NCBI RefSeq assembly: GCF_001447785.1
Contig: NW_015160869.1
Location: forward strand, 186,001 to 250,000
Direction of reading: 5' to 3'
Length of the DNA stretch: 64,000 nucleotides
Source: Gekko japonicus
Lineage: Eukaryota
The notes below the pieces were generated by a model. That model ran no database searches, was not told where the DNA came from, and worked only from the letters and a program-made list of their open reading frames with translations. Shown in pieces: positions 4,401 through 61,126 of the stretch (positions are counted from its first letter, which is position 1; every line of letters starts with the position of its first letter). The position numbers were made by a program, and so were the translations under genes.

Positions 4401-6829
4401 AGAACGATTCCAAGAATAATAATAAAATACACAATAAATACATAAGTAGCTAGTAAATACATATAACGAATATATATAAAACCTTTAAACGAATACAGGA
4501 ACAATACAATATATCATTGAAACACACCAATACAACGCTAATTTGAGCCAGCATGGCAATTGAGTTTATGAATGTTCATGGGGAGATAGTAAAGGACCTT
4601 TCTAGGAGTCTGCTACAGAGTGAGCTCACCAAGTAGCCTGGTGATCCTAGCACCTGAGGGCAGAACCACCACTGTGGTCTACAGAGCGGTCCTTTGGTAG
4701 AGGGGGGGGAGTATGTATGCCTCACTTCATCCTTTACACTACAGTTTTCTCATTAGAATTCCTACAATAAATGTTACCTTTCAAACTTCACATCATCAGT
4801 ATTATAACTGGATTTATGGAATTTAAATACCATAGTGAAGCACGGGTATCAGGCTAGTGTCATATCTAATTCTTCTTGAAATGGAGCATTGTGTAGAATG
4901 TGGTTCCAAGTTGCACAGACATAACAAACATTGGTTTTGAACTGGTGGGTGAGAGCACAAAAAGATTGCAGCAGCTTAACCTAAAGTAGTAGAATGGGCT
5001 TGATTTAGCCAAAATTTAGCACTTTTTAAAGTCCTGTTGGTTGGAAGAACATAGGGGAGTGCAAGGACATGCTTAAATTTAATGGGACTTTATCTTTGAC
5101 GGAGAGAAATAATTAAAACAATAATACTATTTAGATTTTTCAGGATAATTTTTTGAAACTGTCATCAGGTGTGCTTTTATTTCTAAGGCCAGATTTTTGG
5201 TAAGTTAGATGAAGGCAAATTGTCTTTATTACTACTTATACAGTACAGACTTAATCAAGAATATAGGCAGTGAGTACATCACATAATTGAAAGTGATTTG
5301 GTAAGAAATCTGTCCTAGTTGCACTAGCATTTCAAAATTATAATCCTGTCTTTGATGCTTTCTCTGTAGCTTTCAGAATTTGGAATATGTGGGAAAGATG
5401 CAACACTTTCCTATTTACATGATAACAGCTCAGAGGTTTGAAATGATTCTAGTTTTAAAATGGATGCAGAATGTAACAGTTTTTCTAAAGAACAAATCAA
5501 TGTGTGTGGCAGAGGTTTAATTATTAGCATAATCTTATTAAAATAAATGTAACTTCTGAAGCTGAGCCACTTGAAATGCATCCTTTACAAAACATTTGCT
5601 ACTTTGTGTGACTACATTGGAGAGTTGGTGTAACTACACGCTGTATGATGCTTCTAGGGAAGTTCAGAGTAAATAATATCTAGCAGCCAAGTAAGATGAG
5701 GAGACAGAGCACCAATATGGACCCCACTCTGACATCTGAGATCGTGGTTAAAACACCATTGGATTAGGTATTGTTTTCTTTTCCACATGGAGTAATCAAG
5801 CATGTTTACAAAGGCAGTAGATGAAAACTAGGGACTTAGTGAGGGTGGCACAGCAGATAACTCAGAGATGTCATTAGTTTTAGTGCCAAAAGTGTGAGAT
5901 GTAAACATTTTAAACTGTGTGGATATGGCATCGGCAGCACTCAGGTCGAGTAAGACCCAGCCTGCTGTTTGACAGCAAAGCACCCTCCTTATTCTCACCA
6001 ATGAAGGGTGCAGTCTCGGAAAAGCTGTGATTGAACAAATGGAGGTCGCTTGCCAGCTGTATTTCTTGGGATGCACCCAACAACTGCCAAAGGATAGCTG
6101 TTCCATATCTAGGATGGATTAACTCTGATTAGCCCAGTAATCCATTGAAAATATGCTGTTCCATTCTACCCAGAACTGCAGTGCGAATTGGTAGGCATAT
6201 TTGGAGAGAGCTGGTTTGTGTGTTAATCAGCCATTCTGTTCTGCTCATCCACATTTAATGAAATAGGTTTTGAAATGTCTGAAAGCCAATTTGCATGAAT
6301 AATTGTGTTGCATCTCATGCAATTACTTCAAGCATTGCCACAGAGGAAAGCTTGAAAGGCACAAAGAAAGAGCAGCAACACTTCTGCTGTTGGCAAGAAG
6401 GCTGTTGGGGCATGCCATAAAGACGTGGATGTCCTTAGGTGAAGTCATTGATAGGGGGAAGTAAATTTTTGAGAGTTGCTAAGCTGCCTGGTTGATTATG
6501 CGAAAATTAGATGGGGTTTTCTGCCTTAGCATCTCAGTAAGCACATGCAGAGGATAGTCAGCTCACCTCTCCCCCCGCCCGGTGGTTTCATTTTATGTAG
6601 GATGCTTTGTACCCTGCTGGATCTTCTGCAGCACAGTTCTTTGTTGCTGAAGCTAAATTCTGGGCACAAGCAAAACCTGAGCTTGCTCTTGGAGGGGAAA
6701 CATCTGTAAAAAGTGATGCTCAGAACAAAAGGAAAAATAAGTTTGAGGGAAAGAAGAATGCTCAAGATTGCAGCAGCACAGACATTTTGATGCAATAATT
6801 CAGAGTAAGAGGTGTCAGTTATCAGACAC

Positions 6830-7032
6830 CGTTAAATAAACAAAATATTGCAAGGGGGCTGATGTTTTAAGCATGTTTTTATTTTAAGATAAAAGCCCTT
6901 TGTGTTTGTGTCCTTTATAAAGTTTATATCTTCGCTACCTGGCATTACATTTTATGACATACATGGCCTGGCTCAACAAGGTCTCATTTATGTCAGATCC
7001 GGCCCTCATAACAAATGAGTTCGACACCCCTG
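6830..7032. mobile_element. hAT-type MITE fragment
   Basis: Ends ...ggccctcataacaaatgagttcgacacccctg, a CAGGGGTGTC-type terminal repeat. The left end is unclear. Confidence 0.55.
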
Positions 7033-7033
7033 G

Positions 7034-7228
7034 TTTAAGGTGTAAGCTTTCATGTGCAAACACACTTCCTCAGACAAATTGAAACAAAATGTCTTCAAGT
7101 TTTATATACAATAAGGGGGGGGGGGTTAAGCTTACACCTTAAATGACATGTTGTTGGTCTTAAAAATGCGATTGGACTCAAACTTTGTCCTGCTACTTCA
7201 GACCAATGTGGCGACCCATCTGAATCTA
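7034..7228. mobile_element. Penelope-like pseudo-LTR remnant in inverted arrangement, with hammerhead motif
   Basis: Inverted ttaaggtgtaagctt / aagcttacaccttaa. The tail ggtcttaaa...ggactcaaactttg...tcagaccaa...atctgaatcta is shared with copies at 17130-17380 and 38029-38158. Confidence 0.7.
7041..7076 (-). ncRNA. Minimal type-I hammerhead ribozyme motif (Penelope type)
   Basis: Minus strand: UGU-CUGAGGA-A-GUGUG(UUUG)CACAU-GAAA-GC-UU-ACA. This has both core boxes, stem II, a 3-bp stem I and a palindromic AAGCUU in place of stem III. Confidence 0.65.
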
Positions 7229-7499
7229 TTGTTATAATGGAGACATTGTTGTGCATGGCATGCTTAGTCACCCATCCCACTATCATCCCTGTTTGCAGGT
7301 GTTATGTATATTTTAATGCTCTCATTTAGGTATTGGGGAAGGGGATATACATCAACCTGGTTCTTCTGGGCATCTCTAGTTAAAACAAGCTCAATCCTCC
7401 CTGGCCCATGTGCATAAGCTGCCACTGAGACCCAAAGAAGAAAAGTGTTTGCATCCTGGATACTTTGCATGCTTTTCTTGGGAGGAGCCATGGCTTACT

Positions 7500-8017
7500 A
7501 ATTATTTTTTTTAGTTCCTTTGCACCCTGCCTTTCTCCCCAGTGGAGAGCCAAAGCAGCTTACATTGTTCTCCTCCCCTCCATTTTATCGTCACAAAAAC
7601 CTTGTTGTGGTAGTTTAAGCTGAGAGTGTGTGACTGGACTAAATTAGGGCTGCCAAGCCGCGGCAGGGGATCCGCACGTCTTCACAGGATCCCTGCTGTG
7701 GGGGACAGCGATACGCGTTGCACCGCCGTTGCCAGGATATGACATCCTGGCGACGGCGGTGCAATGCGTATTGCTGTCCCCCGCGGCAGGGATCCTGTGA
7801 AGACGTGCGGATCCCCCGCCACAGCTTGGCAGCCCTAGACTAAATTCAGTGGGGGTTCAATTCTAAAGACATTTTGCTGGGAGTAGACCCCATTGAACCT
7901 ACTTCTGAGTAGACCGGCTTAGGCTTGCTGCACCACTGAGTTTCCGTGGCATGGGGGGGGGGGGGTTTGGGCCAGATCCTAGTTTAGCAATCTAGCCACT
8001 ACACCACACTGGCTCTC
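7500..8017 (-). mobile_element. Old tRNA-derived SINE (Squam3/MIR-like) interrupted by MITE insertions
   Basis: Reverse complement begins gagagccagtgtggtgtagtgg (A box). The body resembles other copies in the window and is split at 7645-7935. Confidence 0.65.
7645..7837. mobile_element. Fully palindromic 193-bp hAT-type MITE
   Basis: TAGGGCTGCCAAG...CTTGGCAGCCCTA. The whole element is self-complementary, with a perfect 8-bp TSD GACTAAAT (7637-7644, 7838-7845). Confidence 0.92.
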
Positions 8018-12795: not shown

Positions 12796-13860
12796 AAATG
12801 TTGGTGGGTTAGCTACCCATTGTTTCCCCATAGAATATATATATCTCCAATAGCTGGTTGTACAAATGGGATCAGGTTACACATTGCTGAATTCCAGCTC
12901 TTTGTGTGATTCGAGCTGTGCAGTTCAGGGAAATAAATTAATTGCTCACCTTTCACGGCTGTAATTTTTGCACTTTAATGAGTAGTTTCTACATGGGTAA
13001 AATTAGAAGACTTAAGCTCAGAAAGTCTCAGATGGCATGAGACTGTTCAACATTAACAAAGACTTTGATTCCTGCTAATAAAAATGACTCCAAAGTTCAG
13101 AAAATGGGATACCAGAAAATGGCAGGAAGGGGAAAGAATGGAGGCTGCTTGTGTCTGCAACCCCTTTCTGGAATCGGTGTCCAGAAGACAACCTTTTGAC
13201 TGGGTCTTTTTCCTTGATAGCCCCAGTTGTGTGGACTGATACCATCTTCAGTCAAAGTCTAATAAAATTTTAACACACACCTAAGCCCTGTTCAGCTTTC
13301 TGTATGAACCAGAATAGTCATGTGGTAGCAAGTTTTGAAGGTCTGCACCATTTCACAAAGGAGCTGTTTACCTGTAATTCCCCCAGCACTGCAAGAGCAG
13401 CAGCCAGTAAAATAGGCGAACAGGCAGTGCTTTGCCATGTCCTCATCATCCAGAGACATGAGTGAGAGGTGAAGCTGGAGGGTGGCTCTGCCCACACTGT
13501 GCAGATATATGGCTGGGGAATGACCAAAGGGCCATCTGGAGAGCCAGCAGCTCCGGGCAGCAGATTCCAGGGTTGCATCATTCTCCTGGCTCTGCTCTCT
13601 ATCTTTGTGTGGCAGTAACACAAGTAGTGCCCAGTTACTTAATCGAGCTCCTTCCTTTCTATGGGTTATTCTGTTTTGTAACCAGCTGAGTCCCACAGTA
13701 GACCCAGCGTGAGCCCTTTTTGTTTATTGGTTATGTCATGCCACCATGCAGTAGTTTAGCATGTAAAATGGTAGGCTGCACACAGTATAGGCTGTGCATT
13801 ACCACTGAAACATGGATAATGGTCATAATGCAACCTCTTAATGGAAATATAACTTTAGAG

Positions 13861-14436
13861 ATAGAATCATAGAATGTTAGAGGTGGAAGGGACCTTTCAG
13901 GTCATCTAGTCCAACCCCCTGCACTCTGCAGGAGCATAGCCAAAAGATAGCCCTACATACCTACAACATACCTGAAAGATGGTCGTCCAGCCTCCGCTTG
14001 AAAACGTCCAGCGAAGGAGCATCCACCACCTCCCAAGGCAGACTGTTCCACTGCCCAACCACTCTTACAGTTAGAAAGTTTCTCCTGATACTTAGCTGGT
14101 AACGACTCCCTTGTAATTTCTACCCATTAGATCTAGTCTTGCAATCCGGAGCAAAAGAGAATAGATCTGCTCCATCTTCTACATGACAACCCTTCAAGTA
14201 CTTGAAGACTGCAATCATGTCCCCTCTAAGCCTTCTCTTCCCCAGGCTAAACGTACCCAATTCTTTCAGCCTTTCCTCATAAGACTTGGATTCGAACCCT
14301 CTCACCATCCTGGTTGCCCTTATGGACACGCTCGAGCTTGTCAACATCCTTCCTAAAATGTGGTGCCCAAAACTGGACACAGTACTCCAGGTGAGGCCTG
14401 ACCGTAGCAGAATAGAGCGGAACAGAATAGAGCGGA
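13861..14436 (-). mobile_element. CR1 LINE 3' fragment (ORF2 C-terminus and 3' UTR)
   Basis: Peptide [44 protein letters not shown]; (ATTCTATG)n tail. Confidence 0.93.
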
Positions 14437-15321
14437 GGTGAGTTAAGAATCACAACGATTGTTTAAAATACAGGATCCCCAAAATCTCTGTAAAAAAAAC
14501 AGTGTTGAGACACTGAATTATCAGGAACAGATAGTAAAAAAAAAAACCAGAGACTTTAGTGGACAGTTAAGGCTATTGAAGTGTATTTGATTTTAATGAG
14601 AGGCCTAAAGCAACCGCCTCCTCTCTCTCAGCCTCCTCGTCTTTATTACAAGGACCATAATACTGCCCTATAGGGTTGTTGATAAGAGTTTCCAAGATAA
14701 TCTGTGTGAAGAGCTTTGAACATTCTTTAGTGCTATATAAATGCTAAGTGTTATTAATATTAAATGAAAAAGGGCAGACAAAGGTTTCAGGCAGAGCAGT
14801 TTCTGGAAGAGGAGGAGAAGAGATATGGTAGACAGAAGCTCCTAAATATAGCTACTAAACTTCTGGCATAATTCTAGGGCGTATTTCAGTGTAGAGTCAA
14901 AACAAGTACTTTGCTCTTAAATTCCAATTTAGATTTCCTCAGTTTAGCATATTAATAATTTTAATGTGAACATTTTAAATAACTCTGAGATTTAGGGCCA
15001 ACTCCATGAAAACATTCAGATTTCTGAAGGGGATTTCTGAAAGAAGGAGCAAGCTATCCTGAAAGTTTTAACATGTTAATCTTTGTAGCTTGATTTCCTT
15101 CTACTGCTGGCAGACAAATGAAATATGGCTTGGACCTACATAAACTAAGTAAATTATTCAATTATGAAGGATAGTCTGATTATTTTTGCTACCATATTTT
15201 CAGGCAAGTTCTCTGGAGCAGCAGCACAGCAGTGTTCTAAATAAATAAGAAAACTGCATGTATGTGAAGCACCATCTTCTTCCTTATCCACTAAGATCCT
15301 GAGAGAACACCCTTTTCTGAC

Positions 15322-15710: not shown

Positions 15711-16325
15711 TATATTTATTTATTACAGTTTTCTTGTGCATTACATCATGCATTCATGGTAATTCAAACAGTTTCAACTATCAGAGTCAAATAAATCATA
15801 CATTATTATCTTTTATCCACTTATAAAACATTTCCCATCTACTATGAAATACGTCCATATCTTAATTCTCTAAGATTGTGGTCAGTTTGTCTATTTCAAC
15901 TACTTCCTGAACTTTGGTTATCAATTCATTTCGTGATGGTATCCTTTCAAGTTTCCAATTTTTGGCAAATATAATCCGTGCTGCAGTAATAATAAATCCC
16001 ATAGAATATTTTTGTTCATTTTTCAACTTATCTGGCAATATGTTTAACAAAAATATTTCTGGTCTAAAAGGCAGTTCTACTTTGTACATATCTGCTAGTA
16101 TCTTACGTACCCTCTGCCAGAATCGCTGAGACTTTTGGCACCTCCACCACATGTGATAGAAGGTGCCTACATTGTTTTTACATTTCCAGCAATTTTTAGA
16201 TACATTCGGGTAACATTTAGCTATTTTATCCGGGGACCAGTGCCACCGGTGATACATTTTAAATATATTTCCCTTATATGGAATTGTGCGTAGCTGTTTT
16301 GCAGCAATCCGTTTTAATATGGTTT
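15711..16325 (-). mobile_element. L1/Tx1-clade LINE 3' fragment (ORF2 C-terminal cysteine-rich domain)
   Basis: ORF 15862-16404: FKMYHRWHWSP...NCWKCKNNVGTFYHMWWRC, a C-x2-C...H-x4-C motif of L1-type ORF2, followed by AATAAA on the minus strand. Confidence 0.85.
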
Positions 16326-16685
16326 TAAGTGTTCTAATTATTTGTGATTTTTTTTTTACAATTTTGTAACCACATTGGAAGTCATGTGCTACAAATGTAG
16401 ACAACCTGTAAATCTTTTAAATAAACAAAACTGACAATGCCATTCTCAGCAGACTTACACCCTACTAAGCCCCCTCATTTCAGTGGACTTGGAAGAGTAG
16501 AGCTCTGCTGATAGGGTAGGAACTTGCTTATGAAAATCTCTTTTAAAGTGATAGTCTATGTTATCCTTACCATTGTATCCCATTGCACTTAAAGAGATAA
16601 GATGGCTCCCTTGCCATGGGGATAGGCTATTCATATATTGAAAATCTTTTTCAACAGAAGTCTTTCATTTATTGTGCATGCATTG

Positions 16686-17099: not shown

Positions 17100-17380
17100 G
17101 GGAGCCTGAAAGCTTATACCTTGAAAATCATAGAACAAACTTGGAGTCCAGTGGCACCTTTAAGACCAACACAATTTAATTCTGGGTATAAACTGTGCTG
17201 AGAATTAAACTTTGTTGGCCTTAAAGGTGCCACTGGACTCAAACTTTGTTCTGTTGCTTCAGACCAACCCAGCCACCCACCTGAATCTACCCTGAAAATC
17301 TTGTTGATCTCTTGAGATTCTACTGGACTTGAATCTCGCTCATGTACTGCAGACCAACATGGCTGCCCTCTTGAAACTTT
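17100..17380. mobile_element. Cluster of Penelope-like pseudo-LTR remnants (one inverted pair)
   Basis: gaaagcttatacc hammerhead remnant; inverted gagtccagtggcacctttaag / cttaaaggtgccactggactc; two cagaccaac tails. Confidence 0.7.
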
Positions 17381-17496: not shown

Positions 17497-17719
17497 TGTG
17501 TGTGTGCGCATGCTTGCGAGCCTGGAAGTCATAGTGACTTCTGGTGATCCCTAGTGGGGCTAGGAAACTTCAGAAGAGGTGGCTTTGATATTACCTGCCT
17601 CTGTGTCCCAGCCCTGGTATTCCTTGGATGTTGCCCTTCCAAGTACTTGCCAGGGTCAGCCCTGCTTCGCTTCTGAGATCTGATGAAACTGGGCTTGCCT
17701 GGGCTATCCAGGTCAGAGC
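17497..17719 (-). mobile_element. 5S rRNA-derived SINE
   Basis: Reverse complement contains the 5S internal control region: cagatctcagaagcgaagcagggctgaccctggcaagtacttggaagg. Confidence 0.85.
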
Positions 17720-17949: not shown

Positions 17950-18144
17950 AATGCTGTCAAGTTGTAGCTGACTTATGGTGACCCCATAGGGTTTTCAAGG
18001 CAAGAGGTGGTTTACAATTGCCTACCTCTGCACAATAACCCTGGATGTCCTTGGTGGTCTCTCATCAGTACTAGCCGGGGTTGACCCCGCTTAGCTTCTG
18101 AGATCTGATGAGATCAGGCTAGCCTGGCCTATCCAGCTCAGAGC
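17950..18144 (-). mobile_element. 5S rRNA-derived SINE
   Basis: 5S-like head (cttagcttctgagatctgatgagatcaggc) with ccatagggttttcaaggcaagag tail. Confidence 0.8.
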
Positions 18145-18589
18145 GGGGTCTCTCTGCAGCAACCAGGAAAGTCGGAGATGCATTTTGAACCAAGAAAAAA
18201 CTTCTAGACAGTCTTCAAAGGCAGCTCTACATAGAGCAAACTAAAGTAATCTAACCTGGATATGATCAGAGTATGGATAGTTGTATGTCTCAATCTTGTG
18301 AAACGTATATGGAAAGCAGAGGCTGAGAGATTGCAGGTTTCTATGGAGACTGCAGTTTGCCCTGGTTGTCTCACTGAGTTTATGGTTGTCAGTAATTTGA
18401 ATGAACTTGCATGGTCATTTTGTAGAAGGAACTGAAGTTCATTCCATGTGAGAGTACGAAGTTAAATGACATCATTAGTGGAGCTTATAATGTTGGTAGC
18501 TAATGGGGAGAAGACACAGACACTGATGAAACTGGATCCATTTTTAGTTGTTGCTCATTGTGGTCAGTGACAGGAGAAAAGTAGACATG

Positions 18590-23434: not shown

Positions 23435-23649
23435 TTGGTGGAAAGTGCTATCAGGTCATAGATGACTGCTGACAACCCTGTGGGGTTTTCAAGGCAAGAG
23501 CTTTCAGAGGTGGTTTGCCATTGCCTGCTTCTGCATAGCAACCCTGGTATTCCTTGGAAGTCTCCCATCCAAATACTAACCGGGGCTGACTCTACTTAGC
23601 TTCTGAGATCTGAAGAGATCAGGCTAGCCTGGGCTATCCAGGTCAGGGC
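23435..23649 (-). mobile_element. 5S rRNA-derived SINE
   Basis: tctcccatccaaatactaacc...cttagcttctgagatc...ctatccaggtcagggc. Confidence 0.85.
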
Positions 23650-24525: not shown

Positions 24526-26053
24526 GTAAGAGCAGAGCCACAGAATACTGGAGGTTAAACATTTCCTTCTGTCCCATATTCCTGATATGCATCTCCCCCA
24601 CCCCCAAGCTTCTCTTTGCCATACATGCATTGCCTACCTACTGCGTATATATTTTTTTCTCTACAGAGTAAATAGCAGCTCTGGATGGAGTGAAGGGATT
24701 GAAACCTGTGAAAATGGTGTGGAGAGAAGGATTAAATCTTCCTCCCCATGGAATTACTGCCCTGATCTAATCGTTCCCCCTTTCCTGGTTGTTGTTAACC
24801 TTTAAAGGCACTTGGGGAGATTCTAATCATGGATCTCCCAAATCATCCTTTGAGTTTGGCCTGAATACACCTGTCTTTTTAACACTTTGAAAGAAAAACA
24901 GAATAAAGCTAAAGCATAATACTAAGATGAATTTGACCAGTCACCCAAGAGACACACTAATCCAATCCTGCATTATTATGATTATATTGCTCTGTATGTC
25001 ATCCCATTAGATGCTAGTGGCAAAGAGAGGGATTCTCCTTTGCCTTCTAAATCCTCCTTTAATGAAAACTCTCAAAGCAGCTGCCCTGCAAATTAGGAAC
25101 GTTTATCATGGGTGCTACTAATAGCAGATTTTCCTTCCATCTTTCATCTTCCAATTAAAGGGGAAAAATTGAAAACCCTGCTCTCAGCTGCATCTGCATC
25201 ACAGAAAGCTCATTGGTGTTCATTCGTTTTTTTTCCTGAGTGGCTGGAAAGGTACAGCAGAAATCTTGCACTTCTGTCTGTAATATATGTTTTATCCTGG
25301 CCTTCCTCCAAGGACCTCAGGGCACTGTGGGAGATGGAAAACGTGGGAACTGAGCTTTGGACTTTGTGCATACAAACCACTTAGCCCCTCAAAGTGTAAT
25401 GGTCTCCGCTTCAGTAAAAGGAGGTATGCTTAGGAAAAGAAATAAGGGAAATTCTGAAGCATGTGGTAAAATGCTTTGGGCCTGACCATGCATATAGAGT
25501 ATTGTATGGTGGGAAAGGAAGAGGGACCCACAAGTGCATGTAGAATCATTGAGCTGGGGAAGCAATCGATTCTGTACTCTAGCAATTTCCAGGTTGACAA
25601 CTGACATTAATGGTCTCAGAACAGAAGGAGTACAGGTGAGTTAAAGTTAGTATGGTTCAGCAACTTCCTTGTTCCAATAATGGATCATGAAAAAATAGGA
25701 CAAGAGGGAAGCAGGTTTGGGACACTGTCCAAACACAGAGAGAGCCGTTGAAGGAAGAGCAGAAAAGAGATGAAATGATAAAGATCAGAGGGAGCAAAAG
25801 GGACGTGATTGGACACAAGGGATGAAGTATTACTGCAGTGATCATCCCACTGGACTACTGACATAATCTTTTGTGAGCTCTCAAGTAAAAAAAGAATCTC
25901 ACGTCACTATTAGAACATACCTTCGGAATGTTGTGATTCTCTAAGATGCAGTCATCACCAGGGACTGCCTGCAAACCCTGAGCTGTGCCAGAGAAGAGCA
26001 GGTCATTTGGACCACTTTGATTAACTCAAATGGGCTCTTTGTTTCCTTCGCAG

Positions 26054-26141
26054 ACCACGGATGACATCTTGGTGGCCTCCGCTGAATGCCCCAGCGACGA
26101 TGAGGACATTGATCCCTGTGAGCCAAGCTCAGGTGGGTTAG
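26054..26141 (+). CDS. NRXN1: Neurexin-1 penultimate coding exon (stalk and Cys-loop), with alternative donors at 26132 and 26141 (splice site 5, +/- GGL)
   Basis: Acceptor ctctttgtttccttcgcag| then ACC ACG GAT GAC... = [26 protein letters not shown](GGL), matching the NRXN1 stalk as I know it. Donors TCAG|gtgggt (79-nt exon) and TTAG|gttagt (88-nt exon) are both phase 1 and in frame with the last exon. Confidence 0.97.
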
Positions 26142-29290: not shown

Positions 29291-29926
29291 CCACAGCAAA
29301 TTGATGCTAAGTGCCCAAGACAAGGGCACCTGCCTAGAGCCTCTTTCTAGAACTTCTTGTATTTATTTCCACAATGGGCCTTATTCCTAGTATTCTATAA
29401 TGCACATCCACAAAAACATATCCACATCAGCTTGTAAAAGTTCTGAGAACAGTAGAAGCAGAAACCACATGGAAAGATTTTAGTATTTAATATTTTCATT
29501 CTGTACCAGTGGTGGCTGTCACCTATACTGATGCTCCAGTTTCCTTTTCACACTACGCATTCAACACAAAAGAATGTTGCTGCACTTGTTGACATGACCA
29601 GCTTTATAGCAGGTTCCAGGTAATTCCTCCCACAGCTAACCTTTATGCCCATGTAAGAATTACAGGCCACAGTCTAGCTACTATACAGTATTCAGACAGT
29701 GATGTAGTAATGCAATGTAAAGGTCTACTTGCTAACACTGAATAAGTTTGTTGCTTGCTAGTGTCATAGATTCCATTGTAGGTAAAGGCCCACCTTCAAA
29801 TAACAAATCCAATGAAGAACACGGAGGTCACTGCTGAGGTTGATTCACACACAGTGCTATCCTAAGCAAAGTTGGAACCTTCTAAAACCATTGACTTCAC
29901 TGGAGTTAGAGGAGTGTAAGTCCCTT

Positions 29927-30303
29927 TAGAATCATAGAATCATAGAATGTTAGAGTTGGAAGGGATCTTGCAGGTCATCTAGTCCAACCCCCTGCACTCT
30001 GCAGGAGCATGGCCAAAAGATAGCCCTACAACATACCTGAAAGATGGTCTTCCAGCCTCCGCTTGAAAACATCCATCAAAGGAGCATCCACCACCTCCCG
30101 AGCCAGTCTGTTCCACTGCTCAACCACTCTTACAGTTAGGAAGTTTCTCCTGATATTTAGCCGGTAACAACTCCCTTGTAATTTCCACCCATTAGATCTA
30201 GTCTCGCAATCCGGAGCAAGAGAGAATAGATCCACTCCATCTTCTACATGACAGCCCTTCAAATACTTGAAGACTGCAATCATGTCCCCTCCAGGCCTTC
30301 TCT
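29927..30303 (-). mobile_element. CR1 LINE 3' fragment
   Basis: GDMIAVFKYLKGCHVEDG...RRNFLTVRVVEQWNRL and (ATTCTATG)n tail. Closely similar to the 13861 copy; inserted within a small palindromic MITE. Confidence 0.93.
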
Positions 30304-30543
30304 CTTTTTTACATTCCACTTTCTCTTTAGGATCGCACTGACAGTGTATTTTCCTAATGCTTTATGCATGTGTTGATACACTGTGGCAGTGACTCTAGAG
30401 GGTTGAAAGTTTCAGGGGATCTCATCCAGGATGGCTTATTTGTGGCATTTGAGGACAAGTGACCCAAATGATTTTCTAGGTAGAAACAATTTTCTTCACC
30501 AAACCATCCAAAAAGCACACATACTTGTGACTTTTATGATAAC

Positions 30544-33133: not shown

Positions 33134-33541
33134 CAGGGGTCATTTAGTAGAAAAAGAGGCGCAGGAGCTCATTAGCATAACTCATTAGCATAACTTATTT
33201 GCATATGCCACACACCCTGACATCACTGGAAGTGTGTCAGAAGGCAACACCCACCGCTCAGGCTCCACTGGACTGTTTTGGATTGCTAGCTATTGGGGGG
33301 GGGGGGACATGCAGACCTGTCCTCGCAGAGGAGGGAGAGCTTGCACCTGAATAAAACATGGTCTTAAAGGTTCCACTGGACTGTTTGGGGCCGGGGGGAG
33401 CTCTGCAACTTACCTGGCTACTTCTTGCTCTGACTGAGGGCTGCTGGGAGCAGGGGGTGGGGGTTGTTGCCTGTGCCAGCCCCCTGAGCTCTTTACTGCC
33501 GGAGCTCCGCTCCTGTGCGCTCCTGCAGGAAATGACCCCTG
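33134..33541. mobile_element. hAT-type MITE (CAGGGGTCATTT...AAATGACCCCTG)
   Basis: 12-bp perfect terminal inverted repeat and perfect 8-bp TSD GTAATAAG. Confidence 0.92.
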
Positions 33542-35072: not shown

Positions 35073-35315
35073 TTTTTTCCCCTTTTTGTTGAGTATTGTG
35101 TGTGTGCGCATGCATGCCCGGAAGTCATGGTTGACTTCTAGCAACCCCTAGTGAGGCTTGAACGTTTCAGAGAGGTGGCTTGCTATTGACTTGCCTCTGT
35201 GTCTCGGCCCTGGTATTACTTGGAGGTCTCCCATCCAAGTACTTGCCAGGGTCGGCCCTGCTTAGCTTCTGGGATCTGACGAGATCGGGCTTATCTGGGC
35301 TATCCAGGTCAGGGC
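35073..35315 (-). mobile_element. Young 5S rRNA-derived SINE with 16-bp TSD
   Basis: 5S head gcccgatctcgtcagatcccagaagctaagcagggccgaccctggcaagtacttggatgggagacc; TSD tgagttaatgcatctc at 35057-35072 and 35316-35331. Confidence 0.92.
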
Positions 35316-38028: not shown

Positions 38029-38158
38029 GCATCTGAGAAAGTGTGCGTGCACATGAAAGCTCATACCTTGAGTAAACCTTTGTTTGTCTTAAAGGTGCCC
38101 CTGGATTAAAAATTTGTTCTACTGCTTCAGACCAACATGGCTGCCCACCTGGTTCTAT
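38029..38158 (+). mobile_element. Penelope-like pseudo-LTR remnant with degenerate hammerhead motif
   Basis: gcat-CTGAGAA-A-GTGTGC(GT)GCACAT-GAAA-GCTC-atac, then the family tail cttaaaggtgcc.ctgga...cagaccaacatggctgccc. Confidence 0.72.
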
Positions 38159-38865
38159 CTTCAGTCTTATGCAAACTCACCTAAGTCACACTGAACAAAG
38201 TGGGACTTATGTTTGAGTAAAGGCGCATAGGATGACACTGCTAGTGTCTTCACCGTCCCTGAATTTGGTGGCTCCTCAAGCAATCCACTCCTTTCCTGGG
38301 TGATGAATAGGAGGAGCTTGTTAGAAACTGGGATAATATCATCATTAATCTGGGTCCAGCCTGTCCACGATTGTTATAGAGATGTATGGGTCCTGTATGT
38401 GAAGCTGGATCATCCAGATGATTATTGCGGCATTATTTGGAGAAGATAAATATTTAGATAAGTGATACATTTTTCCTTCTTTTGCATCCTAAAATTGATG
38501 GAAATGTGTATCGTGCCACCTTTCTGAGAACTAGGAGAAAATGGCTACAGCCAAACACCCAAATACATTTTAAAAATAAATTACTATTCTGTAGGAGCAC
38601 GGAAGCACAAAATCTTGCAATTCAGATTTTATACCCCTAGTGGGATTTTCTTCTCTGTTATGCAGGCGGGGAGCAAACCATCCATTTCAGCTTGGTTTAC
38701 TGAAGTGTGCAATTTATTTGGTTGCTTATTGCAGTTCATTAGATTTATAGCCCCCCTATGCCAAGGACTCGGGGTGGGTTACATAAATATTTACAGGGCT
38801 CATGATCTAATTTCATAAGAGGGGAGGGGAGTACACTGACTGTGAGCCAGTAGTTGCAGGCATTT

Positions 38866-39455: not shown

Positions 39456-40482
39456 ATTCCAATGTGGGTTTTGTAAAACAATGGAGGGAAAAGCCAGTAC
39501 AGAATCGCCCTGTGATAATTTCCAAGCTCACCCCTGATACAGGAAGTGTGAGATCAGTTCTATATGGTCCTCTGCAGTGTTCCGGTATGCACAACAACCC
39601 AACAACCCACCAGCTTCCATTTTTTAATGCTCACTGCATTGTAAACATAGTGGTTGTCAGTTTTCTTTTACTATGGTTTTGCTGCCATTTAAATCCTTAT
39701 TAAAAACCAATGCACTGCTGATTGCTCCATAGGATGACAAGGGGAAGCACTTTTAATACAATGAAGGAGGTTGGCATAAAAATGGGGGGGGGTAACAGGT
39801 TCATAGAGCTTTTCAGACAGGAGATGGAGAGTGAGTGAGAGAGATAAGGTGTGTCTATCCTCCTTGGATAGTTAAGCTCCTTATTGTAACTGTTTTAATT
39901 ACTGCAATATTCAAGATTACTGTTCCAAATTTTTATCATTCTGTCATATTATCTTTATTATATACAGTGCTACAAACTGCTGTATCCTGACTGTTTTCCT
40001 TTGTTGACATATGGGCTGATTTGTACTGCTATTCCTTTCATAGAGTTATTGTATGCCAGTAAGGTTATTGGAATTGGAACTGGAATTGGCTTTTCTGGCC
40101 TGAAATTATTTTAGTTATGGAATTAAACTTTATAGCTTCAATGTAACCAGTCACTTTGGTGGCAAGGGGGTATGTGGGGGGTTAATCATTCATACAAGGT
40201 CTGTTTACTGATCTCCCTTCCCAAAGCACCAGTAACATTCTGGCCTGTGTTCATTAGAAAGTTTTACTGTTCCTAATTTTAAAAAAAAAAGACTACCTTA
40301 AGGGCCATTTAAATTAATGGAACCTGCTAATCATATCTAACTCCTCTGCTGACTTTGAGCAGCAGTTTTATCCATACTTACTGAGAAGTAAATCCCACTG
40401 TATTTAGTTGGTTTACTTAGGATTCTGCTCCACTCCAGGGTAAGCTTTTATAGACTGGAGCCCATTTTGTTAGGAATGCTGG

Positions 40483-41059: not shown

Positions 41060-41624
41060 GCTATAGGGAGAACTGTCAATAACAAACAGTACAGCACACA
41101 GCAAAAAATAGCAAGGGACAACAAGAAACAACTGTGAGCTGAATTACAGTGAAAGTAAATCCAAAAGGAGACTTCAACAAAGTGAAATGCACATGTAATC
41201 AGAAATGAATCTATACATATAATCCATCATTGGAAAATACAGAAGTTCACAGGATCCATAGAAGGAAAAAAACAAAGTCCAGAGTAGATATCCAACACTT
41301 TTCCTAGGTAGTATGCAGTGTTTCAGACTTCTGGTCCTTCCTCAGGAACAAAGAACAACATTAGGAAGTCTCATTCCAATTTCTTTACAGGACAATACTA
41401 TTCAGTTTCTTTATGGGCCAGGTCTCCTAAGCTTTAATATGCACCTCTCATGGTTGCTTCTATGTAAACAGGACCAAACATGCCTCCAAATGATGGATTA
41501 TATGTATAGATTCATTTCTGATTACATGTGCATTTCACTTTGTTGAAGTCTCCTTTTGGATTTACTTTTGCGGGTAATTCAGCTCACAGTTATTTCTTGT
41601 TGTCCCTTGCTATAGGGAGAACTG
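41060..41624. mobile_element. Inverted-repeat element (Penelope-like) with ~127-bp arms and a hammerhead core in the spacer
   Basis: Arms 41108-41234 and 41485-41613; flanking 16-bp direct repeat gctatagggagaactg; minus-strand CTGAGGA-A-GGAC(cagaa)GTCT-GAAA at 41321-41345. Confidence 0.75.
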
Positions 41625-50608: not shown

Positions 50609-50913
50609 CAAGTCCCACCAAGGCTGGAGGGAGAGGATTTGCAAATTCGGACGAGGTGGTCCGGGAATCCAGCAGCACCACTGGCATGGTGGTTGGGATT
50701 GTGGCGGCAGCTGCTCTGTGCATTCTCATCCTCCTCTATGCCATGTACAAGTACAGAAACCGGGATGAAGGTTCCTACCATGTTGACGAGAGTCGAAACT
50801 ACATCAGTAACTCAGCACAGTCCAACGGGGCTGTGATTAAGGAAAAGCAACCAAACAGCTCTAAAAGTTCCAGCAAAAATAAGAAAAACAAGGATAAGGA
50901 ATACTATGTCTGA
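50609..50913 (+). CDS. NRXN1: Neurexin-1 terminal coding exon (juxtamembrane, transmembrane helix, cytoplasmic tail with PDZ-binding motif)
   Basis: Acceptor tttcatcatttacctacag|CA. Translates (A)[100 protein letters not shown]. The HVDESRNY segment and the GGL donor pattern fit NRXN1 better than NRXN2/3. Confidence 0.97.
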
Positions 50914-55353: not shown

Positions 55354-55715
55354 AGCATTGCCCCACCTATTCCCCCTTCTAGAGACACGCCCTACTGATG
55401 CTCCACTGTGTACAACATACAGAAAATACAACCACAAACCACTGCACAGTCTCAGATTTTCCTTTCATAAAGCCCTCCTGATCTATATATTCCCTGTTTT
55501 ATTTCATCCTAAGAAAGGATATGTTCCCACACAGCATTGCCCCACCTATTCCCCCTTCTAGAGACACGCCCTACTGATGCTCCACTGTGTACAACATACA
55601 GAAAATACAACCACAAACCACTGCACAGTCTCAGATTTTCCTTTCATAAAGCCCTCCTGATCTATATATTCCCTGTTTTATTTCATCCTAAGAAAGGATA
55701 TGTTCCCACACAGCA
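55354..55715. repeat. 179-bp tandem duplication with no differences seen
   Basis: Units start at 55354 and 55533; AGCA microhomology at all three junction positions. Confidence 0.95.
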
Positions 55716-57882: not shown

Positions 57883-58173
57883 TACGGTTCCCAAGTACTT
57901 ACCGCAATCTGGCAGAGGACACATGCTCCTCGGCCGGAACATTCCTCCCTGTAACACACCATGCCGTCACCAGGAAGTGACGCTGGGTGACGCTCTGACA
58001 ATGGGGCTGAAAACTCGATTATACCATCAAGTTTCCAGCCCCATTGCTAGAGCGTCACCCGGCGTCAATTCCTGGCGACAGCATGGTGCCGCGTGTCTGT
58101 TGTCCACACGGGAATGGTCCTGGGAAGACTTATGTGTCCCCTGCCAAATCATGGTAAGTACTTGGTAAGCCTG
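57883..58173. mobile_element. TAGGGTTGCC-family palindromic MITE
   Basis: ccaagtacttacc...ggtaagtacttgg inverted ends; TSD ATTACCCA/ATTACCTG (6/8 match). Confidence 0.75.
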
Positions 58174-58654: not shown

Positions 58655-59630
58655 TTTTTTTTTGTGTTGTTCAGTCACACAGTCGAGTCCGACTCCCGTC
58701 TTCTTTGACCTTCAATCTTTCCCAGCATCAGGGTCTTTTCCAGTGAGTGCTCCCTTCTCATTTGGTGGCCAAAGTATTTGAGCTTCAGTTTCATTATCTG
58801 GCCTTCCAGGGAACAGTCAGGGTTGATTTCTTTGAGGATTGACTGATTTGTTCTTCTTGCAGTCCAAGGGACTCTCAAGAGTCTCCTCCAGCACCATAGT
58901 TCAAAAGAATCTATTCTTCGGCGCTCGGCCTTCCTTATAGTCCAACTCTCACAGCCATACATGACTACTGGGAATACCATTGCTTTGACCATGCGGACTT
59001 TTGTTGGCAGGGTGATGTCTCTACTTTTTATCATGCTGTTTAGGTTCGCCATCACTTTCCTCCCAAGGAAATCTTTTAATTTCATGGCTGCTGTCACAGT
59101 CTGCGGTGATCTGGGATCCCAGGAACGTGAAGTCTGTCACTACTTCCACGACTTCCCCTTCTATTTGCCAAGGAGTGATGGGGCCGGATGCCATGATCTT
59201 AGTTTTTTTGATGTTGAGCTTCAAGCCCACTTTTGCGCTCTCCTCTTTTACCCTGAGCAAGAGGCTCTTTAGGTCCTCTTCACTTTCTGCCATTAGAGTG
59301 GTATCGTCTGCATATCTGAGGTTGTTGATCTTTTCCCCAGCAATCTTAATTCCCGCTTGTGATTCATCCAGGCCAGCATTTCGCATGATGTACTCTGCAT
59401 ATATATTAAATAAGCAAGGCGACAATATACATCCTTGTCGTACTCCTTTTCCTATGCTGAACCAATCAGTTGTTCCATATCCGGTTCTAACTGTCGCTTC
59501 TTGGCCCTTATACAGGTTTCTCAAGAGACATGTGAGGTGGTCTGGTACTCCCATCTCTTTAAGGACCTGCCATAGTTTGTTGTGATCCACACAGTCAAAG
59601 GCTTTAGCATAGTCAATGAAGCAGAAGTAG
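58655..59630 (-). mobile_element. RTE-BovB LINE fragment (reverse transcriptase to 3' end; frameshifted, internally deleted)
   Basis: YFCFIDYAKAFDCVDHNKLW...GVRQGCILSPCLFNIY...NNLRYADDTTL, then KVRMVKAMVFPVVMYGCESWT...; 3' tail gactgaacaacac. Confidence 0.95.
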
Positions 59631-60450
59631 CTATGCTTATGCAAATGCATCCGAGAGGCGTCCCTCTCATCAGGATTCCAATCGCTCAAAAGGTTTCAGG
59701 GGGGGATTTACGCTTCTGTTTACGGTTCGCTCATTTTAATTCACAGTTCATTGTTTCTTAACCACACTCGTAATAGCTCCTTCACCAGATCTTCTGCACT
59801 TGACTGGGTTGGCACATCTTGTGCCTCGCTAAGAGGATGCAGACAGCAGGGAGGACCGTCAGGGCAGAGGGCAGCCTCAATTTCCCTGCAAATAGCAGGA
59901 AAAGAGGCTCACCCTCAAAAGCCCTATGGCCTCGGGGGCCTCCCTGACCCCCCGTGGAGGTGCCGATCCAGCGGCACCCCTCCCCTCTGCTGCTGTGCAG
60001 AGCGCCCTCCCCGAGCCTCAGGAAAGGCATCCGCCATCGTTGAACCGTAGACCCCGCGTCTGCATTACTAATGTTAAACAGATCTACTATACCAATAGTT
60101 ACAGATTCTGTAAAGAACAACGTATTTCAGAAAAATATCAGAGCCTTACAAGTAATTTAAACCTTGTGAGTCTGTGGCTGGCAGAGAGGTTTGACTGCAA
60201 CTATCTTTAGCCGGCTACTTGGATGGAGGAGGAGGGGGTTTAAACCCTGTCCCCTTCCACGGCTTGCCAGCGAGCCCCATGGCTGCGGGGCTCCCGGGCA
60301 AGCCAATGCTTAGATGGGCTGCTGGGAGCGGGGGTGGGGCTTGGTCATGTGCCCGCCCCCGGGGCTTCTCACTCCTGGAGCCCTGCTCCTGTGTGCTCCG
60401 GCTCCAACCGACCCCTGCAAACCAGAGACCAATTCAGTTCCATCATCTGG

Positions 60451-61126
60451 TGTTTGTGAGATCGAATGTGTGAAAATCATGGTAACAGTATTAAAGCAAG
60501 TCCAAGAAATGATCCCGAAAACGGAAACCTGTATGAGTACTGCGCTACAATAATAGTTTAAGTATCTAAAGTGACAGTGTAATAATCCAAAGTGCAAATT
60601 AATAAAATGTTAACGATGACCTTCGGAATGTTCTACCGTTTCGATAATAATCTTCTTCGGAACAAAGATGAAGAATATGTAACGCCTCTAGTCAATGTCT
60701 CAACTGGTACATATCAATAAGTCTCACTGAAGTGTCATGACATCATTTTATAAGGTTCCAAATGATTCTTAGAAGGCACTTTACAGCATTTTGCCCTTCT
60801 AAGAATCATTTGGAACCTTATACAATGATGTCATGACACTTCAGTGAGACTTATTGATATGTACCAGTTATTGACTAGAGGCGTTGCATATTCTTCATCT
60901 TCGTTGGGAAGAAGATTATTATCGAAACGGTAGAACATTCCAGAGATCATCGTTAACATCTTATCATTTGCTTATTTTTGTACTTACCTTGTGAAATGTT
61001 GATTGTGTGTATATTTGCACTCTGGATGACTACACTGTCACTTTAAATACTTAAACTATTTTTGTAGCACAGTACTCATACAGGTTTCCATTTTCTGGAT
61101 CATTTCTTGGACTTGTTTGTGAGATC
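60451..61126. mobile_element. ~620-bp foldback element (Penelope-like) with hammerhead-like motifs in both arms
   Basis: Arms 60497-60776 and 60795-61115 around an ~18-nt loop; 13-bp flanking direct repeat tgtttgtgagatc; motif gaaga-a-gat(tatt)atc-gaaac in each arm. Confidence 0.75.

Follow-up and report, generated by a model that had tools for sequence, protein, structure and literature searches.

The window analysed here comprises 64,000 nucleotides of DNA from Gekko japonicus (contig NW_015160869.1, positions 186,001 to 250,000, forward strand), and at 7041-7076 its minus strand carries an arrangement of bases which resembles a hammerhead ribozyme. The question raised by this locus is whether such a sequence, placed antisense to the host gene NRXN1, is a ribozyme at work or the residue of a mobile element. 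The reading that best accounts for the observations, with a probability of about 0.87, is that a nearly complete minimal type-I hammerhead lies in an old copy of an abundant repeat of about 140 nt, likely the pseudo-LTR of a Penelope-like element (PLE), and is predicted to be inactive here.

A minimal hammerhead, as defined in PMC4209133, has one additional base following A9, a G10.1-C11.1 pair that is conserved, and, at positions 15.2-16.2, a palindrome. The minus-strand motif at 7041-7076, identified by a descriptor match and by this published consensus, is a real and nearly complete example. Its stem I consists of 3 bp between the 5′ arm at 7076-7074 and the 3′ arm at 7043-7041. The core C3-A9 occupies 7073-7067 and is followed by an extra A at 7066, and stem II is formed by 5 bp (7065-7061 with 7056-7052) around a loop of 4 nt. 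G12-A15.1 is found at 7051-7048, then GC, then U16.1-U17 at 7045-7044, and cleavage is predicted after U17, between 7044 and 7043. The invariant positions C3-U4-G5-A6-N7-G8-A9, G12-A13-A14, A15.1-U16.1, and H17 are all present. The palindrome AAGCUU spans 7049-7044 and contains AGCU at 15.2-16.2, and the motif has no stable helix III. The first-pass annotation had described this layout on the minus strand, and every element was found as claimed, with all core bases in place and the palindrome standing without a stable stem III. Its term “near-intact” holds for the core, the stems, and the palindrome but overlooked the pair closing stem II, which is G10.1-U11.1 instead of the conserved G-C.

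A descriptor that demanded the core without mismatch and helices of at least 4 (stem II) and 3 (stem I) pairs was applied to both strands of the 64-kb window and gives a single site, 7041-7076; allowing one core mismatch adds no further site. In dinucleotide shuffles, any descriptor match occurs in 2 of 150 and a palindromic match in 0 of 150. The bare core pattern is common, with 11 matches against 6.6 expected, which is not significant as 4 of 100 shuffles reach 11. The folding energy of the 36-mer is no better than that of shuffles (z 0.32), as expected of a motif with little helix. Rfam hammerhead models expect helices which minimal motifs lack. The Rfam search proposed with the annotation, run on the whole window and on 7000-7120, yields no hammerhead family at E≤10, and it was the separate minimal descriptor that matched. 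Weak matches to a relaxed motif at 23497-23536 (in a 5S-derived SINE), 40434-40478, 41421-41476, and 25867-25912 were rejected as hammerheads, being at shuffle level (0.74 per shuffle at 4 mismatches).

The motif is part of a repeat unit of about 140 nt. A profile built from seven window fragments, with acceptance at E≤2e-4 and the reversed window as control, finds eight fragments at four places, two at 7 kb, four at 17 kb, one at 33 kb, and one at 38 kb. Seven of the eight are seeds of the profile and only the 33-kb fragment is new; four further matches with E≥0.17 were dropped, and the reversed window gave one match at E 2.1 and nothing better. The sister copy at 38029-38161, on the plus strand and sense to NRXN1, is homologous to the 7-kb copy and holds a whole but broken hammerhead (38029-38067) in which G8 is replaced by A, C11.1 by U, and stem I is reduced to 2 bp. 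Stem I differs between the two whole copies in a compensatory manner, with G-C at 7 kb and A-U at 38 kb; this is the multicopy family with compensatory changes expected of a minimal hammerhead, represented by a single compensatory pair from two whole copies. The cluster at 17101-17380 contains fragments on both strands (17101-17130 plus, 17129-17200 minus, 17196-17291 plus, and 17287-17380 plus) and has neither a core nor a whole hammerhead. It also holds an inverted head-to-head pair, an arrangement thereby seen at two of the four places (7 kb and 17 kb), and at 17196-17380 one tail directly follows another on the same strand. The plus-strand fragment at 33335-33382 (profile E 7e-7) is short, with the palindrome and the start of the tail. 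No tandem array is present at the 7-kb locus or at any of the four places. Whole motifs occur in two of the eight fragments (7041-7076 and 38029-38067), and the other six keep at most the 3′ half. The annotation had counted at least six such motifs, a figure which is true of repeat fragments and not of whole hammerheads.

At the 7-kb site, two copies of the repeat lie head to head. Copy A (7034-7083, minus strand), likely a PLE pseudo-LTR, comprises the hammerhead and the first 7 nt of the tail; its 3′ part is cut off at a hAT-like piece and its 5′ boundary is uncertain. It is identical to 38032-38069 at 33 of 38 positions, and the depth of the family in public contigs is high over 7056-7096. 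Copy B (7128-7231, plus strand) lacks the core: it starts with the palindrome, 6 nt ahead of the point where cleavage is predicted, and reaches the 3′ end of the family. Its identity with the 17.2-kb and 38.1-kb copies is 72-82%. The copies point away from one another, and the spacer of 51 nt between them (7077-7127), which includes a G run and is covered at 7111 by 5 and 6 contigs in two DNA runs, is either a part of the element that precedes the hammerhead or target DNA. The part shared by copies A and B forms a perfect 16-nt inverted repeat (7034-7049 with 7128-7143, 100%). Since these 16 nt are identical while family copies differ by 18-28%, one insertion event is suggested, from which both copies likely stem. 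No target-site duplication was identified. An inverted match of 30 nt at 77% between 6780-6809 and 7065-7094 was treated as chance (E 0.64).

Copy A is abutted by the terminus of an end fragment of a very high-copy DNA repeat, hAT-like, at 6762-7032 on the minus strand. Its depth is about 10^4-10^5 times that of the flanks, and public contigs stop at 6761 and 7032. The flanks of this repeat family have the consensus CTCTAGA, and the local target 8-mer shares the central TA; we take the terminal sequence and target preference to be of the hAT-Charlie type and the piece to be, presumably, a nonautonomous transposon. Neither a second end nor a duplicated target was found at the locus. In run X3, from a second organism, the alignment of a 541-nt contig of depth 50.3 covers 6533-6762 and breaks off at the hAT-like edge, and a contig of equal depth (50.3) appears at 7115. 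As judged from these contigs, the hAT-like piece may be missing from the second organism, in which case it would postdate the PLE-like insertion. Both DNA runs carry about 14 more bases than the window at 7453-7458, and all contigs have G at 7111; these discrepancies are either a private deletion and a variant or assembly errors of the window.

The abundance of the family was followed in four public runs, aligned to 6400-7600 at 80% likeness. Contig depth over 7056-7096 is 309,000 and 63,000 in the two DNA runs, values which are summed depth and not copy number, and over the tail it is 170,000-860,000 as compared to 30-70 on the unique flanks. In two organisms, motif and tail are covered thousands of times more deeply than the flanks, and the repeat of about 140 nt is very abundant. 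In run X1, contigs from other loci join the minus motif to the plus tail. The right half of the motif can be recovered from the consensus of the loose contig ends that precede 7151, and reads CACACGAAAGCTTATACC in run X22; runs X1, X3, and X21 give a consensus of the CACACGAAAGCTTATACC type with A for G12 (agreement 0.6-0.7). The left half of the family core is seen only in the 38-kb sister copy.

This consensus bears on the lost pair of stem II. C11.1 is present in the loose ends of all four runs, and the two positions C11.1-G12 read TG at 7 kb and 38 kb, CA in three of the four runs, and CG in the fourth, three states that we read as those of a decaying CpG. The G10.1-C11.1 pair, absent from both the 7-kb and the 38-kb copy, is present in the family consensus and was likely lost in the 7-kb copy by CpG decay. 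The majority letter at the catalytic G12 is A in three of the four runs, which speaks against selection acting on the family at present. In copy B, 9 of 78 nt are private changes (about 11.5%), seven of the eight scorable ones being transitions. At this rate, the 11 core bases would all survive with a probability of 0.26; as this is about one chance in four, an intact core needs no selection, and its presence in one of the two whole copies is unsurprising. In the second organism (run X3), the flanks are at about 94% and 90% identity, and a contig runs from 7133 through the right flank, so that at least copy B is older than the split of the two organisms.

The features of the repeat can be compared with known systems. 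It has been reported in PMC4209133 that minimal hammerheads number thousands per genome, mostly as single truncated copies, that they occur in turtle and snakes, and that some form opposite-strand pairs 100-700 bp apart. The gecko family is likewise dispersed in mostly single copies with opposite-strand neighbours, in a reptile. With the Chrysemys picta row of Fig. S3 of the same paper, a row not marked there as PLE-associated, it shares the CUGANGA core, the extra base before stem II, G10.1, a 5-bp stem II, the GAAA-G-C-U-U-A layout, the lack of helix III, a short stem I, and a U-rich 5′ side. It differs in its stem sequences (the family is absent from Fig. S3), in G10.1-U11.1, in a stem I of 3 bp, and in having no PLE frame. 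According to PMC8557442, PLE insertions are highly 5′-truncated and are frequently joined at the 5′ end by a truncated copy in inverted orientation, and this trait of EN+ PLEs is found at two of the four places. The window copies resemble the Penelope/Poseidon and Neptune elements treated there in 5′-truncation, in the adjoining inverted copy at the 5′ end, and in a hammerhead inside the repeat, whereas here only about 50 and 100 nt remain and no reading frame is left.

Searches for the coding part of such an element were empty. None of 107 frames of at least 38 aa around the four places matches Pfam for a reverse transcriptase (RT) or GIY-YIG domain, as expected for truncated copies; no match was obtained when viral, metagenome, and genome contigs were scanned for patterns of the motif or the tail; and the comparison of the PMC8557442 supplement with four short family motifs gave one match, in an unrelated coding sequence. 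PLE membership therefore rests on motif and layout, from which the repeat of about 140 nt is likely the pseudo-LTR of a Penelope-like element. It may belong to the Neptune clade, a group recognized by its RT phylogeny and a Zn-finger-like linker. The earlier assignment of the motif to a PLE is thus upheld by the consensus, the turtle layout, and the inverted 5′-truncated pairing, but no PLE frame is linked to it. PMC2837043, PMC544870, PMC11300833, and PMC7561263 contain nothing decisive for the motif. The papers searched hold no description of a named lizard or gecko PLE family with a repeat of about 140 nt; the family is probably catalogued in repeat databases, and the motif is a further copy of a known kind.

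A sequence of events can be proposed for the site. In the parent element, as may be derived from the model in PMC4209133, AAGCUU would join the motif to a second copy in a shared helix III, and the RNA would then be cut after U17. One insertion likely left two 5′-truncated copies head to head, 7034-7083 on the minus and 7128-7231 on the plus strand. The tail of the minus copy was likely hit later by a hAT-like transposon, whose distal end would have disappeared along with the remainder of that tail. The copy would since have decayed as neutral DNA does, G10.1-C11.1 becoming G-U through a CpG change.

The host gene is identified by two exons on the plus strand. The penultimate coding exon of NRXN1 lies at 26054-26141, flanked by AG and GT, and 29 of its 29 residues are identical to residues 331-359 of Neurexin-1. 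The last coding exon, encoding the transmembrane and cytoplasmic part, lies at 50647-50913 with an approximate 5′ boundary and was recognized by a protein match, 50647-50910 corresponding to residues 375-461 (E 4.6e-48). As both exons are on the plus strand, the minus-strand motif is antisense to NRXN1, and it lies 19 kb upstream of the penultimate coding exon. A scan of the window with peptide motifs did not find the preceding exon. The annotation had placed the motif antisense in an NRXN1 intron; the antisense orientation follows from the exon matches, and the intronic position is a safe deduction. The NRXN1 pre-mRNA would carry the complement of the motif and hence no hammerhead. Nothing ties the motif to NRXN1 function.

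Activity at this locus was evaluated by RNA modelling, in which the energy models ignore tertiary contacts and the results are indicative only. In minus-strand RNA folded in four genomic contexts, the predicted pairing is 0.00 for stem I and 0.01-0.19 for stem II, while the inverted repeat is predicted to pair at 0.92-1.0 once the RNA includes 7143, as in the two longest contexts (0.71 at one end in the shortest context). In a minus RNA starting above 7143, this 16-nt repeat would be paired over the stretch from A14 to the 3′ arm of stem I, palindrome and cleavage site included. In the models, the homodimer of lowest energy does not take the form of a double hammerhead, and duplex formation by the palindrome is estimated at −4.3 kcal/mol. 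A partner on the same strand is also wanting, as the window holds no other whole motif in that orientation, the nearest same-strand relative being the 17-kb cluster, without core. The literature describes the G10.1-C11.1 pair as conserved, and its replacement by G10.1-U11.1 would be expected to abolish hammerhead activity. Taken with the modelling, the hammerhead at 7041-7076 is probably inactive at its site.

Two public RNA runs of unspecified tissue, of which 3% and 12% were read, leave the unique flanks without a single read and show no accumulation of ends at 7044; the test is insensitive. RNA reads fall only on repeats, equally in both directions. Because neither run contains NRXN1 intron reads on either strand as a control, the absence of flank reads is compatible with antisense RNA in brain. 

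Three other explanations can be weighed against an inactive PLE relic. An origin of the motif as a chance arrangement of bases would agree with the silence of Rfam, the unremarkable fold, and the frequency of the bare core pattern. The Rfam silence would be expected of a minimal motif, the palindromic descriptor match is absent from the shuffles, and the homologous whole motif at 38 kb, with its compensatory change, together with the depth of the family refutes this explanation, which retains practically no credibility. A nonautonomous hammerhead element, either a non-LTR retrozyme or a SINE-like derivative, in place of the terminal repeat of an autonomous PLE would still leave a dead relic. 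The absence of any coding remnant beside the four places is in its favour, as are the end-to-end tails at 17196-17380. In this regard, the preprint 10.64898/2026.07.22.740005 reports retrozymes in four of five reptiles, with a mean unit of 176 bp and derived from PLE terminal repeats, and defines a retrozyme as at least two consecutive whole motifs in tandem. According to that preprint and PMC7761336, animal non-LTR retrozymes are similarly noncoding and have a type-I hammerhead which needs a dimer. The gecko repeat, however, shows neither two consecutive whole hammerheads nor a tandem array at any of the four places; its copies are dispersed, 5′-truncated, and inverted, and its minimal motif is of the type described for PLE pseudo-LTRs in PMC4209133. 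A nonautonomous origin is thus considered improbable.

The remaining alternative is that the copy is kept as a regulatory ribozyme on NRXN1 antisense RNA and cleaves by pairing in trans with RNAs of the family. The core bases are all intact, family RNA is abundant on both strands and would provide partners, and the insertion, at least in its plus part, is common to a second organism whose flanks differ by 6-10%. Moreover, PMC6155905 describes hammerheads that were domesticated in amniote introns (RECK, DTNB, and others) and are of type I as well. These known cases are canonical and conserved across amniote classes, whereas the gecko motif is minimal, antisense, lies in a young high-copy repeat without sign of conservation, and has no Rfam match to a canonical fold. 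Against such a role also stand the age and abundance of the copy, the lost closing pair of stem II, the ready survival of the core by chance, the predicted burial of the cleavage site, the predicted homodimer and its weak palindrome duplex, the lack of a near same-strand partner, and, as a weak test, the lack of flank reads and of ends at 7044. In vitro, single minimal hammerheads are not cleaved and dimers or trimers cleave weakly, as reported in PMC4209133, and the in vivo role of PLE minimal hammerheads is called a mystery in PMC7761336. A working ribozyme antisense to NRXN1, a possibility implied by the first-pass annotation, is not supported, and its retention as a regulatory ribozyme is very improbable, more so than a nonautonomous origin. 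The locus is likely an ordinary transposon relic, a dead Penelope-like pseudo-LTR, and one decayed copy of a motif present in thousands per genome has little importance by itself.

A separate aspect of the family concerns the points at which its fragments begin. Of the six partial fragments, five cease to resemble the whole copies at a point between about −8 and +2 nt from the predicted cleavage site, and the sixth at about +8, in a comparison resting on two whole copies. The partial copies starting at 7128, 17106, 17194, 17287, and 33337 do so near the palindrome or the predicted cleavage site. The clustering could be a signal or an alignment bias. The 17.1-kb and 33-kb fragments carry core-like letters slightly upstream of the loss of similarity and may be copies that lost stem II or another subfamily, and the contig depth over the motif, allowing for a half-covered bin, is not far below that of the tail. 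That the starts record ribozyme cleavage in vivo, or palindrome-driven template switching and inversion, is a doubtful proposal with a small chance of being right. If it holds, tens of thousands of copies could reveal, by where their 5′ ends lie, either that the minimal hammerheads of PLEs cut in vivo or that their palindrome brings about template switching and inversion. A high-copy lizard family is of use here, since genome-wide statistics of its copies would allow a test of starts at the cleavage site.

The window contains several other repeated elements. Heads of 5S rRNA-derived SINEs lie on the minus strand at 17603-17715, 18030-18145, 23533-23638, and 35199-35311, and also at about 20284 and 40720; two of the heads reach the Rfam gathering score. 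An exact tandem duplication of 179 nt (55354-55715, 100% identical) is either recent or an assembly artefact, and an inverted repeat of 125 nt (41108-41231 with 41489-41613, 96% identical) is probably a young MITE. Long MITE-like hairpins are seen at 7682-7800, 57978-58067, and 60734-60837, with Rfam microRNA matches below gathering scores. A reverse-transcriptase remnant at 58675-59695 on the minus strand (Pfam RVT_1, E 2e-28) is presumably RTE/BovB-like, and further LINE remnants occur at 13853-14449, 29924-30361, and 15862-16416, for which we assume CR1 and L1 labels.
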